Origin: a phage | Strand: one strand, 5' to 3' | Sequence record: PX216937.1 | DNA: 41,268 nt | Part shown: positions 13,930 through 19,247 of the stretch, in pieces | How positions within the stretch are numbered: the first letter of the stretch is position 1 | Layout of the letters: each line of letters opens with the position of its first letter | Made by a program: the position numbers and the translations under genes | Notes under the pieces: model-generated | Database searches by the model: none | Told to the model about the DNA's origin: nothing | The model's input: the letters and a program-made list of their open reading frames with translations, nothing else

Positions 13930-16311
13930 TTAGATACCAGAAGAGCGACGCAGGTAGTTACCTTCCCAGCCACAACCAATCACGTTAAGTGGGGTCGTGT
14001 GGTCGGAGATAATACGCACTTCGTTCAACTTGGCGTTACCAGACACGGGGAACCGGAACTGCCCAGTACCAACGTTGAGTCCACCAGTGCGTAAGGCATT
14101 TGAACCCAACCTAGCTCCTGCCATGTCATAGCTGAAAAGACGTGAGGTGTTCTCTACTTCCACAACGAACGCACCAGAATCCTCATAGTTGACCCATGCG
14201 CGTCGAAGCTGTAAGCGACCAATGTCCTCGGTAGCTGTTGAGCCATCATCCTCTGTCTTCTTGATGAGGAACTTTGAGAACACATACCGAAAGTCAATAG
14301 CCAATCCAATGTACACCTTCTCACCCTCTCGGTTCCCATCAAGGACCAAGCGAGGTTCACCATTAGGCCATCCACCATGCGGCTCATCGAACCATGATAC
14401 CTTACCATCCATCGCCACAATGTAGAACTTACCTAAATAGTTCTTCATTCCGTAGAATTGACTTGGATAGATAACAGTCTCATACGTGTCATCATCGTAG
14501 GAACCATAAGGGATTGTTATTTCCAGCTTGTTATCTATGTAGATGCGGTAAGGTTCTTCAGGGTAGTCAATGGAGTTCTTTGTGAAGTGTGCCCGTGCCA
14601 TCCACGTATGGGACTGGTTGCGTAACAGAAGGTACATAGTGGAACCAATAGAATCACAAGCCAATACAGTTACGTTACTCCCTAGTTCCCAATGAGACCA
14701 CGACTGTTGCACATTTTCCTCATTCAAGTACAGAAATTTGTACATGAAGATTTTGCTTGGGGCGTTTGCGGATAACACCGAAACGAAGTTCTCAGTGCCA
14801 GAGCCTCGAATGGAGAACACACCATTAGGAATGTAGCTAGGAACGTGAGCACTCATGTCCTCCGCAGACTTCACGGAGCTAACATCCTGTACCGCATAGT
14901 ATCGGTTGATTGATGTATAGGATGCACGAGGTGACGCAAAGTAGACACCACGCCCAATACCAAAAGGTCTCGCCCTGTCTGACACATCGAACTCGGTCGT
15001 TAGGTTCAACTCAACTGACTTCGGTGAGAGGATACCAGAGGCAGATAATACGAACTGTGCTTGGTCAGACCATAGGAGCAACTCTTCGGAGAACGGTACA
15101 GCATATTTAAGCGTACTGATTCGGTTGTGTGACACAGCAACGTCGATTGGGTCATCATCGGATAGGTTGGCAACCGATGCAGGGAACAGTGAGAAATACT
15201 TGGATGTACGAGACATCACAATGTTTTCACCAGCAAGAAACCCTAAGCGGTTCCTGAAGAAGAACACATCGTTAATCCGCTGGTCTACGATAGACGGGTC
15301 GGGGTTAGTATTCATGTCACCACACTTGCGCTCATCCCATGGCAAGGCTTCCATCTTAAAGGAACCATCGGCCTGTCGAATCAATGCGTGTGGCATGGTT
15401 GCCCCATTGAGTCCCTTCTGTACTCCCCATCCGGCTACTTCCTTCCACACTTTACGTGCTGCATCGTACTGTACATAGAACGCATCGGAAGTCTTAGAGG
15501 TGTCGCCAACGATTTGTACGGAGTATCCATTAGGAGCCTCAGAGGGTAACTTAGTGAATGACTGGCTGGTGTGCATTACCGCAGACATCAACTGTCCACC
15601 ATAACCATCCTCTACCTCGACCTTCCAGATTGGTTCGTCACCTCGTGACACAATATGAATGAACCCAGCACCCTCGTTGACAGTCCATCCCCAAGTGTTT
15701 GCACCTCCTTCTCGAAGTAGCTGTGCCATCTTCTTAACGAGCCATTGTGCATCCGTCTGTTCAACTTCAGTGGCATTGGCACCATCAGCAATCTTATAGG
15801 ACGCAGAGATACCATTCAGTCTAATCGTAAAGGTACGACCATACTGACCACCACGGATGTTAATGAGACACTCGCCGTCTTCTCGAATAGTGTAGATAGG
15901 GTCTTTGTTGGCTTGAACAACCTTAGAGCGGTTCACTACGAACGTGTAGTCTGCCACAGTTACCATCCTTAAGTCATCCCTAGGGTTAGCACAGTTAGCA
16001 TATGAAGTGTCACCATGTACAACATACTCACGCCCATTGAGGTCAAATACTTTGATACCGCTTCCAGTGAACACAACGTAATACTGTTCGACGCTGTCAC
16101 GGTTTATTAGGTGAACTAAAGGTGCGCCACCAAGGAACCCAGCGTCACCAATAGTTTTCGTAAAGATGAAAGGTGGCCTCTTCTGGAGACCTTCAGTTTC
16201 AGACGACCATCCGTTAATCTGTTCAGCGCCCTGCTCGGGGAACCTTAAGATGTCTGGCTGTTGACTGATACCGCCTTTCAGGTTCTTGACGGATTGTGAA
16301 ATAAGAGCCAT
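13930..16311 (-). CDS. 12: Tail tubular protein B (gp12)
   Basis: Start placed at the internal Met (MALISQSVKNLKGGISQQPDILRFPEQG...), which matches the recalled T7 gp12 N-terminus and has AAGGAGG upstream; 793 aa. The track's 815-aa start is an upstream extension. Confidence 0.9.
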   Translation of the reverse strand: MALISQSVKNLKGGISQQPDILRFPEQGAEQINGWSSETEGLQKRPPFIFTKTIGDAGFLGGAPLVHLINRDSVEQYYVVFTGSGIKVFDLNGREYVVHGDTSYANCANPRDDLRMVTVADYTFVVNRSKVVQANKDPIYTIREDGECLINIRGGQYGRTFTIRLNGISASYKIADGANATEVEQTDAQWLVKKMAQLLREGGANTWGWTVNEGAGFIHIVSRGDEPIWKVEVEDGYGGQLMSAVMHTSQSFTKLPSEAPNGYSVQIVGDTSKTSDAFYVQYDAARKVWKEVAGWGVQKGLNGATMPHALIRQADGSFKMEALPWDERKCGDMNTNPDPSIVDQRINDVFFFRNRLGFLAGENIVMSRTSKYFSLFPASVANLSDDDPIDVAVSHNRISTLKYAVPFSEELLLWSDQAQFVLSASGILSPKSVELNLTTEFDVSDRARPFGIGRGVYFASPRASYTSINRYYAVQDVSSVKSAEDMSAHVPSYIPNGVFSIRGSGTENFVSVLSANAPSKIFMYKFLYLNEENVQQSWSHWELGSNVTVLACDSIGSTMYLLLRNQSHTWMARAHFTKNSIDYPEEPYRIYIDNKLEITIPYGSYDDDTYETVIYPSQFYGMKNYLGKFYIVAMDGKVSWFDEPHGGWPNGEPRLVLDGNREGEKVYIGLAIDFRYVFSKFLIKKTEDDGSTATEDIGRLQLRRAWVNYEDSGAFVVEVENTSRLFSYDMAGARLGSNALRTGGLNVGTGQFRFPVSGNAKLNEVRIISDHTTPLNVIGCGWEGNYLRRSSGI

Positions 16312-16336
16312 TAGAGACCTCCTTAAGTTATTACGA

Positions 16337-16927
16337 TTAGCGAGACAGCAGACCACCAGTGAAGGCATCACCGTCAAGCATGTTGAAGTTACCGAAGTCT
16401 AACTCGTATTCGGTGCACTGCATTTTTGCTTCCTGTTCCTCTTCAGCTAAGACAGCATCAATCTCAGGGGCACCAAAGAATCGGTTGTTAAACTGACGAG
16501 CGGCCTTTGTGACAATCCAATGGCGGAAGCACTCAGGCATCTCATAGAACTCTCGCATTCGGATGATAGTCACAGTGATAGGGTCTTTGAAGACATCAGT
16601 GCGGTTCTCTCGGTCATACACATAGCCGCCACGATTGACGTAAGCGGTAGTACCTCCTTCAGAGAACACAGCAAGGTAGTCGGACATGTAGGGAATCAGA
16701 CCGTTGAACACATCAGGTAGCAACTGTTGGCCTTCCTCGATGTTGAACGTCCAGCCCTTGGACTGAATCTGACGGTTAATCTTATTGAGTATTCGGCGAG
16801 CGTTAGCAACGTCAGCGTTAGCATCACCCTCCAGAGTGGACACAGGCGGTTCACCGATAGAGGCCAAGATGTCATTGACTGCATTCAACTCTTCGCCAGT
16901 CTCTAGGGTAGTCTCATAGGAACGCAT
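16337..16927 (-). CDS. 11: Tail tubular protein A (gp11)
   Basis: 196 aa, MRSY...[51 protein letters not shown]; near-identical motifs to recalled T7 gp11. Confidence 0.95.
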
Positions 16928-16935
16928 ATTGATTT

Positions 16936-16958
16936 CCTCCCATTAGTGAGTCTATTAG
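16936..16958 (-). promoter_or_regulatory. Degenerate phage-promoter-like element between T-phi and gene 11 (CTAATAGACTCACTAATGGGAGG)
   Basis: Keeps the GACTCACTA core and GGGAGG start region but lacks one base and has substitutions in the -17..-12 part relative to this genome's consensus. Confidence 0.4.
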
Positions 16959-16963
16959 TGGTA

Positions 16964-17005
16964 CGAAAAAAACCCCTCAAGCACCCGCGAAGGCACCCAA
17001 GGGGT
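16964..17005 (-). terminator. T-phi-like intrinsic terminator downstream of the capsid gene
   Basis: Minus-strand AAACCCCTTGGGTGCCTTCGCGGGTGCTTGAGGGGTTTTTTT: GC-rich stem with G-U pairs and a U-run, resembling T7 T-phi in sequence and position. Confidence 0.75.
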
Positions 17006-17025
17006 TTCATATAGTTTACTTACTG

Positions 17026-18179
17026 TTCAGCAGCCAGTTTCGCCGCCTTGTTAGCAGCACGGGTACGAGCAGCTTTCTGTTGTGGCGTTAGCTCTTGCTC
17101 AACTTCAGTAAGGGACTTAGTGTCCCCTACGAGTTTGCGAGAAGTTAAGCCGCTGTGAAAACCAGTGCACCTACTGCTTCAGGACGCAGACCACCGTGAC
17201 CCATCGCGTACTTAGCGATAATCTGGTCAGCCTGATAGTTAGCACGACGAGCACGTTCCAGCGCCATATCTTTCAACTTAACAGTACCAACGGCAGAGCG
17301 GTGACAGAACAGACCGACCACGTTGTCCAGAGCAACCTTATCATTACCAGTAGCAGTCGCAGGGAATGCGTGTTTCTGTTCAGAAGTTGCATCTTCACGG
17401 TCATTACCAGCACCACCAGCGGTCAAATGAGGAACTTCAATAACTTCGAAGCCCATGACGTTGCGGATAGAACCGGTAGACGGGTCAATCAGTGCCTGAT
17501 AGTTTGCAGCGTTAGGCATCAGAGCCGCCAGAATAGCAGAGTAGTTATCAGGAGTGGTGTAGAAGGTACGGTCAGCAGACGGTACATAGTTCTTAGTCAG
17601 ACGCGCACGAGCCAGAGTCAACTGTGCAATGATTGCCTGACCCAGCTTCACTTGGTCACCTTGCAGGTCAGCCGCAGTGCCTACTCCCAGAACACTTGCA
17701 GTACCCAAGCCAGCGATGTTCTCGTTGCTTGCAGCCGGAAGGTTACACAGTTTAGCCATTTCAGCCAGAACCGCGCCGTCAGCAGCCAGAGCCAGAGACT
17801 CACCCAACTGAGCGGTATATTCGGAACGCACGTCATAGTGGTTCATTGCGTCTTCGATGTCGTAAATCAGAACGTCAGCAGTCAGCAGTCCATCAATGTT
17901 AATGGTCTTCTCAGTGTGCTTCATATCTTTACGTTTATCATCAAGGTTCTCACCCGGTTGCAGGTAAGCAGCTTTGGTACGACCCAGCACAGGGAACTGC
18001 GCGGACTTACCGGACTGAATAGAACGCACGAGGTGTTTGTTCATAGTTACGGAGGTACGGGTAAATGCAGTCAGAACTTCACCACCAAAGACCTTCAGGA
18101 ACAGAGCCAGTTTATCACCAGCGCTCATGCCTTTACCTTGGTCCTTACCAATCTGTTGTCCACCAGTAATGTTAGCCAT
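17026..18179 (-). CDS. 10B: Minor capsid protein 10B, predicted by -1 frameshift near the end of 10A (extension about 43 aa)
   Basis: GGTTTTC lies 4 codons before the 10A stop. The -1 frame beyond it is open for about 43 codons (HSGLTSRKLVGDTKSLTEVEQELTPQQKAARTRAANKAAETGC) and ends just before the terminator. T7 makes 10B by -1 frameshifting at the same place. Confidence 0.45.
17145..18179 (-). CDS. 10A: Major capsid protein 10A
   Basis: 344 aa, MANITGGQQIGKDQGKG...KLALFLKVFGGEVLTAF...; close recalled match to T7 gp10A. Confidence 0.97.
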   Translation of the reverse strand: MANITGGQQIGKDQGKGMSAGDKLALFLKVFGGEVLTAFTRTSVTMNKHLVRSIQSGKSAQFPVLGRTKAAYLQPGENLDDKRKDMKHTEKTINIDGLLTADVLIYDIEDAMNHYDVRSEYTAQLGESLALAADGAVLAEMAKLCNLPAASNENIAGLGTASVLGVGTAADLQGDQVKLGQAIIAQLTLARARLTKNYVPSADRTFYTTPDNYSAILAALMPNAANYQALIDPSTGSIRNVMGFEVIEVPHLTAGGAGNDREDATSEQKHAFPATATGNDKVALDNVVGLFCHRSAVGTVKLKDMALERARRANYQADQIIAKYAMGHGGLRPEAVGALVFTAA

Positions 18180-18322
18180 GTTGAATCTCCTTCTGTTGAT
18201 TTATGATAAAAGTTTAAATGTGTGAGGTACTACTTGAAACGAGTTGGTTCTCATTGTGTATCACTCAGAGGAAACACGAAGGACTCGAACCTTCAGACCA
18301 GACCTCACTCAATCTGGATGTG

Positions 18323-18347: not shown

Positions 18348-19247
18348 TTAGAAGTTACTGTACATCATCTTGCGCTCAACTTCCGCACGGAACTTACTGT
18401 CGTGACGATAGCGAGGGTCGGACATTGCAGCAATCATCTCAGCCTGTGACTCAAAGCCAGACTGTTTTGTTCGCACAGGTGCAGCAGGTACGGCACGTTT
18501 AGAGATACTACGGGCAGCAGGTTTACCGAAAGTCTTCGCACGGCTTGCACCAGCGAGATTCACGATAGCCTTCACAGTGGAAAGGTCACGGTTCTCCAAG
18601 GCACTAATCAGAGACTCAGCAGCATCCGGGTTGGACACTTCGAGGTGATTGTAGATTGCTTGGAACTGTGCTTCACCGCCAGCATACTCCATAACGGACT
18701 GAACATACTGTTCTACCAGAGCTTCCTGACCACGGATGTAGGAGTCAACGAAGGACTTAGAGTAACCAGCTTTAGCCAGTTCTTCATAGGACTCTTCGGA
18801 CAGACCATCTTCGCCGTATTCTTGCTGGATTCGGATAATGGTTTCTTCTGACAGGCCACGTTCAGCCGCCTGATTGACCATCTCTTCGAAACCAGCTTCG
18901 TGCTCTTCGAGTTGACTTGAGGCTTCGTTCAGTTCATCTGGAACGTCACCAACTGGTTCAAACTCTTCTGAACCTTCTTCGTAGTCGATTTCACCTTCTT
19001 CGGTTACTTCCGGTTCACCATCAGTGGAGATACGAATCTCAGTGCGGTCTTCGTCCTCTTCACCAAACGGGTCATTACTACCATAAGGGTCGTCATTGTG
19101 TGCTAACTCAATGGAGTCATCGCCATCACGGGCAGCAACATCAAGTTCAAGCATTGCCTGTTCGTGGTCAGTCGGAGTAGACCCGCCAACAACCGCAGAG
19201 TTCACACCGAAAGATGCGTAAACGTCAGCATTAGATTCACCAGCCAT
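18348..19247 (-). CDS. 9: Capsid assembly/scaffolding protein (gp9)
   Basis: 299 aa, highly acidic; size and position match T7 gp9. Confidence 0.85.
   Translation of the reverse strand: MAGESNADVYASFGVNSAVVGGSTPTDHEQAMLELDVAARDGDDSIELAHNDDPYGSNDPFGEEDEDRTEIRISTDGEPEVTEEGEIDYEEGSEEFEPVGDVPDELNEASSQLEEHEAGFEEMVNQAAERGLSEETIIRIQQEYGEDGLSEESYEELAKAGYSKSFVDSYIRGQEALVEQYVQSVMEYAGGEAQFQAIYNHLEVSNPDAAESLISALENRDLSTVKAIVNLAGASRAKTFGKPAARSISKRAVPAAPVRTKQSGFESQAEMIAAMSDPRYRHDSKFRAEVERKMMYSNF

Follow-up and report, generated by a model that had tools for sequence, protein, structure and literature searches.

We found that gene 10A, the major capsid gene of the phage PX216937.1, carries a programmed −1 frameshift site, G GUU UUC, that would make a minor, somewhat longer capsid protein, 10B. 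The frameshift is almost certainly real, yet ordinary, as experiments on T7 and on another phage of the genus have already demonstrated this site. It is an event already known, a textbook case of recoding documented in T7, where Condron, Atkins and Gesteland reportedly described the programmed −1 ribosomal frameshift of gene 10A/10B in 1991, and within the genus to which the phage studied here belongs.

The window (the whole stretch of DNA that was analysed, 41,268 nucleotides) is a T7-like podovirus genome of the Berlinvirus group. Essentially all of its genes lie on the minus strand, as do 17 of the 18 ORFs that reach 200 aa. Escherichia phage vB_EcoS_P1338 and Shigella phage A7 have the nearest GenBank records, at ~97% nucleotide identity; Salmonella phage BP12A and Kluyvera phage Kvp1, both assigned to Berlinvirus within Studiervirinae, come next. 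Around the site the genes stand in the order scaffold (18348..19247), major capsid (Table 1), tail tube A (16337..16927) and tail tube B (13930..16377). The product of gene 10A matched the Pfam family Gp10A-like (PF21703) with E = 8.9e-108, was 89–99% identical at the amino acid level to Berlinvirus capsid proteins and aligned at its C-terminus with T7 10A chains in the PDB (2xvr); the host gene of the shift site is, indeed, the homologue of the gene for the T7 major capsid protein gp10A. The record of the closest relative, P1338, shows the capsid gene as two overlapping CDSs labelled 'major head protein', and its BLAST match falls into two pieces, which suggests an indel in that record; the gene in the window is intact. 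The sole large plus-strand ORF of the window (17196..18206, 336 aa) runs antisense to the whole capsid gene; its most likely origin is the codon usage of a highly expressed gene, which would make it a mirror-frame artefact.

Table 1. Positions of the features at the 3′ end of gene 10A and downstream of it in the window
Feature	Position	Strand	Description
Gene 10A, major capsid protein	17145..18179	−	344 aa, 36.4 kDa; stop TAA 17147..17145
Slippery heptamer G GTT TTC (Val-Phe)	17157..17163	−	−1 shift site
−1 frame extension of 10B	17020..17157	−	HSGLTSRKLVGDTKSLTEVEQELTPQQKAARTRAANKAAKLAAEQ, 45 codons + TAA 17022..17020
Conserved block of the 10B tail	17038..17091	−	LTPQQKAARTRAANKAAK; mostly inside predicted alpha-helix
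Local hairpin	17108..17130	−	GUAGGGGAC-ACUAA-GUCCCUUAC; 9 bp, inside the extension, 26 nt 3′ of the heptamer (MFE fold)
Tphi-type intrinsic terminator	16966..17008	−	18-bp hairpin GAAACCCCUUGGGUGCCU/GGGUGCUUGAGGGGUUUU + 7 T (MFE fold, terminator scan)

The 3′ end of gene 10A reads GCA CTG GTT TTC ACA GCG GCT TAA. An earlier note on this DNA had placed GGTTTTC four codons before the 10A stop, and this is where it lies: three sense codons (ACA GCG GCT) follow TTC, and the stop is the fourth codon after it. The heptamer is an imperfect version of the pattern X XXY YYZ (X XX is G GU). On a −1 slip the base C17157 would serve in two codons, closing TTC and then opening CAC. From this CAC (17157..17155) to CAG (17025..17023) the −1 frame holds 45 sense codons after Phe, 41 of them past the 10A stop, and the +1 frame closes after 9 codons. 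The earlier note was right that the −1 frame is open and ends just before a T-phi-like hairpin, but its figure of about 43 codons was slightly off. The junction peptide that it gave (...ALVF-HSGLTS...) is the one obtained by translating the −1 frame. Predicted 10B has 386 aa and a mass of 41.0 kDa, compared with 344 aa and 36.4 kDa for 10A, and the difference of 4.6 kDa fits the 4–5 kDa that had been proposed. The predicted tryptic peptide that spans the junction is PEAVGALVFHSGLTSR, and the peptides predicted from the tail are LVGDTK, SLTEVEQELTPQQK, LAAEQ, AAKLAAEQ and ...GALVFHSGLTSR.

The heptamer is uninformative by itself, since its count in the window (4 copies versus 5.4 expected) is at chance level. 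An open frame of 45 codons is by itself not rare either, and the window taken alone, thus, does not go beyond chance. The unremarkable heptamer frequency and ORF length, together with the conserved RNA elements of the region (the terminator and the local hairpin), would suit a reading with no recoding at all, in which the open −1 frame is an untranslated leftover or chance ORF, conserved as nucleic acid between 10A and Tphi. What lifts the case above chance is that the position and register of the site are kept in relatives, that the −1 frame is conserved and carries a coding signature, and that the +1 frame closes.

We compared 81 related loci (denoted by L and a number). T7 (L004) and each of the 14 unique Berlinvirus-type relatives had the identical heptamer in the same register, and the spacing between the heptamer and the 10A stop was the same in T7 and in every Berlinvirus-type relative. 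In the same phages the −1 frame stayed open for 41–52 codons past the 10A stop, Yep-phi excepted, and the +1 frame was closed after 7–10 codons. The Val-Phe pair at the site was conserved far more widely than the frameshift. Among unique sequences with a slippery GTT TTC/T at this pair, 28 of 29 had a −1 ORF of at least 40 codons, as against 8 of 24 with a non-slippery pair (Fisher p = 7e-7, for sequences that are not phylogenetically independent). The non-slippery pairs were mostly synonymous, for example GTC TTC and GTG TTC, and some of the 8 sequences that combine such a pair with a long −1 ORF may use another site.

The tail itself was found to be conserved as a protein. According to the earlier note the extension differs from that of T7; this holds for the N-terminal half of the tail but not for its C-terminal 26 aa, which are 69% identical to T7 10B (BLASTP E = 2e-10). 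The block LTPxQKAARTRAANKAxK is common to T7 (Teseptimavirus), Berlinvirus, fPS-9 (Helsettvirus), L1 (Elunavirus), Sarma103 and others, including unclassified relatives. In 16 unique sequences, the variable sites of the conserved block were distributed over the three codon positions as 6, 5 and 17 of 18, and pN/pS was 0.14 in the −1 frame versus 3.9 and 2.1 in the other two sense frames. The −1 frame was open in 16/16 unique homologous sequences; the other two sense frames carried 3–5 stops. Substitutions at third positions and a pN/pS of 0.14 point to constraint on a protein and not on an RNA element, and the comparison shows purifying selection on the distal half of the 10B tail across genera. 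With substitutions clustered in this way, with the frame open in every one of the diverged sequences, and with 10B peptides found in the virion of Kvp1 (PMC2579914), we regard it as very improbable that the extension is an untranslated remnant.

The codon-position test by itself, however, cannot separate the 10B frame from its antisense mirror frame. A plus-strand ORF (17048..17158, 36 aa, TTG start) has its third-codon positions in common with the 10B frame, shows a pN/pS of 0.21 and is open in 14 of the 16 sequences, so that the conserved coding signal might be thought to belong to an antisense gene. We consider this less probable still. Such a signal is the expected mirror-frame artefact and is weaker than that of the sense frame, the ORF is interrupted by stops in L078 and L079, and every one of the 17 real genes with 200 aa or more lies on the minus strand. 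Moreover, T7-like phages transcribe one strand only, and the peptides identified by mass spectrometry in Kvp1 match the sense frame.

Since neither ATG, GTG nor TTG occurs anywhere in the −1 ORF of the window, this frame is reachable only by recoding and does not form an independent gene. The tail is annotated as a separate small or hypothetical ORF in fPS-9 (g033) and pEp_SNUABM_11, and PHROG families exist for stand-alone calls of this kind; the tail alone matched phrog_12582 'head protein' (E = 5.9e-15), a family seemingly made up of such tails, each called in a relative as an ORF of its own. These annotations would be in line with a tail expressed by a route other than ribosomal −1 frameshifting: independent initiation, or slippage of RNA polymerase on the T-run. 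The former would have to do without any of the three start codons. As to the latter, the T-run is just four bases long, and appreciable transcriptional slippage needs homopolymers well above four bases. In addition, a 43.6 kDa band of the Kvp1 virion gave, by MALDI MS, tryptic peptides over residues 327–372 including the distinct C-terminal sequence (PMC2579914); these span 10A into the tail, and the two are, thus, joined in one protein. Expression of the tail by either of these routes is, in our view, as improbable as the absence of recoding, and programmed −1 frameshifting is the reading that we adopt.

We propose that a minority of the ribosomes translating gene 10A would slip back by one nucleotide at G GUU UUC. 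The A-site tRNA-Phe would re-pair from UUC to UUU, and the P-site tRNA-Val would re-pair, imperfectly, from GUU to GGU. The slipped ribosomes would then read CAC AGC GGC ... in the −1 frame, past the 10A stop, up to the TAA at 17022..17020, and their product would consist of 10A residues 1–341 followed by the tail of 45 aa. The tail would have two parts, a linker that varies and is probably disordered and a basic helix that is conserved, PQQKAARTRAANKAAKLAAE. By analogy with T7 and Kvp1, 10B is expected to be made, perhaps at a level like the ~10% of T7 and with some help from the distal CCCC, and to co-assemble in the capsid as a minor species, with its tail on the outer surface as in T7. The C-terminus of T7 10B is the display point of the T7Select vectors, and the tail encoded in the window should, by the same analogy, lie on the capsid exterior.

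Single-sequence AlphaFold2 is consistent with such a tail, as it predicted a linker without structure followed by a helix over residues 32–51 of the 52-aa ORF (pLDDT ~85); the predicted helix covers PQQKAARTRAANKAAKLAAE, with moderate confidence. There was no solved structure for the tail, the PDB chains matching 10B being limited to the capsid body. In the Yersinia phage Yep-phi (L010 / L076) one GAG-to-TAG change leaves a tail of just 19 aa. The sequence beyond the TAG is still conserved and in frame, which points to a recent nonsense mutation or a sequencing error. The truncation shows that the 10B tail can be lost. Taken with T7 10B, which PMC5592923 describes as non-essential, the nonsense codon implies that the product is dispensable at least in the laboratory. 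Purifying selection nevertheless argues that the tail, and with it the 'non-essential' 10B, has a function, a modest comparative point. A bolder proposal, which we hold to be rather unlikely, is that the conserved basic helix is a functional surface module with a role in nature (for example, binding of the host envelope or of a nucleic-acid ligand) despite its laboratory dispensability, and that the near-constant location of the 10B stop 7–12 nt upstream of Tphi reflects functional coupling of −1-frame ribosomes with the terminator hairpin.

The Tphi-type hairpin of the window is G+C-rich and begins 11 nt past the −1 stop. Its arms are the same as those of T7 Tphi (AACCCCUUGGG...CUUGAGGGGUUUUUU), CCCC included, and RNAalifold (11 sequences) supported the hairpin, with 5 stem pairs showing changes on both sides. 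The CCCC-containing terminator region is present and conserved among relatives; in T7, as stated in the review PMC5009743, the far-downstream CCCC of the terminator is involved in gene 10 frameshifting in a way still unexplained. The Yersinia phage PYPS50 (L017) and Erwinia phage L1 (L025 / L081) have extra sequence between the 10B stop and any Tphi-like terminator, which shows that the usual 7–12 nt juxtaposition of the two has exceptions. The stretch from the terminator to gene 11 of the window contains ACTAATAGACTCACTAATGGGAG (16937..16959, minus strand), a putative phage promoter whose position matches the phi11 promoter annotated in Kvp1 and whose sequence is shared with BP12A; no second copy within 3 mismatches was found in the window.

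Closer to the shift site, no hairpin or pseudoknot was found 5–9 nt downstream of the heptamer, either by MFE folding or by RNAalifold of 11 sequences, and no Rfam family matched at E <= 1. The nearest hairpin is the local one inside the extension; its pairing is kept in the close relatives L001, L005 and L009 via G-U/G-C swaps, which alter the peptide too (SL to SP). This hairpin is absent outside the Berlinvirus type and its spacer is far above the usual 5–9 nt, and it is probably not a classical stimulator. We also set aside three other candidate elements. The upstream Shine-Dalgarno-like AGGUG stems from Gly-Ala codons and varies among relatives, L002 and L079 having GGC. A pairing of UGGUUUUC (heptamer) with CAGAAAGCUG ~110 nt downstream, proposed by RNAalifold, consists of pairs that are invariant or change on one side only; it was not counted, because it lacks two-sided changes, that is, covariation, and both of its sides are constrained by protein. 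A G-run partner for the terminator CCCC is not conserved either, being absent in L060, L078 and L079; Berlinvirus-type phages have GGGG 32 nt after the site and T7 has GGGGG 17 nt after it. The site, thus, behaves like that of T7, as an intrinsically shifty U-run with at most distal help, its efficiency not being predictable from sequence. This adds one more instance to an old point, that a T7-type site works without a nearby stimulatory structure.

The main value of the finding is for annotation, in which a joined 10B CDS is due (18179..17157 joined to 17157..17020, minus strand). The GenBank records of P1338 and Shigella phage A7 have no 10B annotation. The records of Kvp1 and L1 give 10B as a two-piece join, to which that of Kvp1 adds 'results from ribosomal frameshifting'; a minor or 10B capsid protein is annotated in BSP161, FE44 and ETEP21B, and the heptamer is marked as a slippage site in BP12A.

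Other extensions were seen at the same place in other loci. In other Studiervirinae the GTT TTC site adds tails of ~90–100 aa, found in one group comprising L038, L039, L041, L044 and L052 and in another comprising L006, L021, L022, L063 and L070. One of these tail groups is a clear Big_2 domain (E = 7.5e-20, L038); the tail of L006, one representative of the other, looks beta-rich and had no Pfam match. The presence of different tails at the same GTT TTC site indicates that the tail module has been swapped while the shift site was kept. Two further loci, L031 and L045 (IMGVR_UViG_3300034349_000001 and IMGVR_UViG_3300034127_000003), have G GTT TTT A at the homologous Val-Phe site, directly after the capsid gene. 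There no stop interrupts the −1 frame before the end of the locus, a stretch of at least 336 codons that encodes a Big_2 Ig-like domain (E = 4e-11). Beyond this domain we noted by eye blocks resembling those of SGNH hydrolases (GDSLT, GTNN and DGTHSN), in a region with no Pfam match, and the extension may be a capsid-fused esterase made by frameshifting.

Compared with known systems, the site shares with E. coli dnaX and the IS elements the slippage of tandem tRNAs by bacterial ribosomes on a heptamer. The canonical cassette of the dnaX / IS type, however, combines a heptamer that fits X XXY YYZ perfectly with a Shine-Dalgarno-like stimulator upstream and, 5–9 nt downstream, a hairpin or pseudoknot. 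None of these is evident in the window, and the site does not belong to that type. In T3 and phiYeO3-12, as proposed here, ribosomes shift to the −1 frame close to the end of the homologous capsid gene, which gives a minor capsid species with a C-terminal extension, but their heptamer is C CCA AAG, with the slip on Lys codons, and the extension is 85–90 aa long (L018, L023 and L074). The review PMC5009743 describes an extension of the T3 / phiYeO3-12 type as Ig-like. The tail in the window, in contrast, is predicted by AlphaFold2 to be a linker with one helix and no Ig-like fold, and it had no Pfam match, as against the strong Big_2 match of the L038 tail.

Kvp1 is much closer. It belongs to the same genus-level group (89% amino acid identity of the capsid protein), with the same heptamer and the same terminator, and its authors ascribed 10B to −1 frameshifting at the U-run (PMC2579914). 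Tail residues 3–38 are identical in the two phages bar one (K14 here, E in Kvp1). The ends of the tails differ: that of Kvp1 is ...KARKEAELAATE (48 aa, like T7), whereas that of the window is ...KAAKLAAEQ (45 aa), as in BP12A, A7 and P1338.

In T7, ~10% frameshifting at GGTTTTC yields 10B, as given in PMC1635266, and PMC5009743 writes the gene 10 shift site as G_GU U_UUC, an imperfect X XXY YYZ. Some details set the window apart from T7. The tail has 45 aa instead of 56, and the N-terminal linker half is unrelated in sequence; ~150 nt separate the shift site from the terminator instead of ~180–200 nt, and only the Berlinvirus type has the 9-bp hairpin 26 nt downstream. The likeness to the T7 10A/10B arrangement that the earlier note had pointed out was nonetheless confirmed against L004: the capsid gene is homologous, the heptamer and its register are identical, the same three sense codons' distance separates it from the 10A stop, the −1 ORF ends a few nt before Tphi, the terminator has the same arms including CCCC, and the C-terminal tail block LTPxQxAARTRAANKAxK is homologous.
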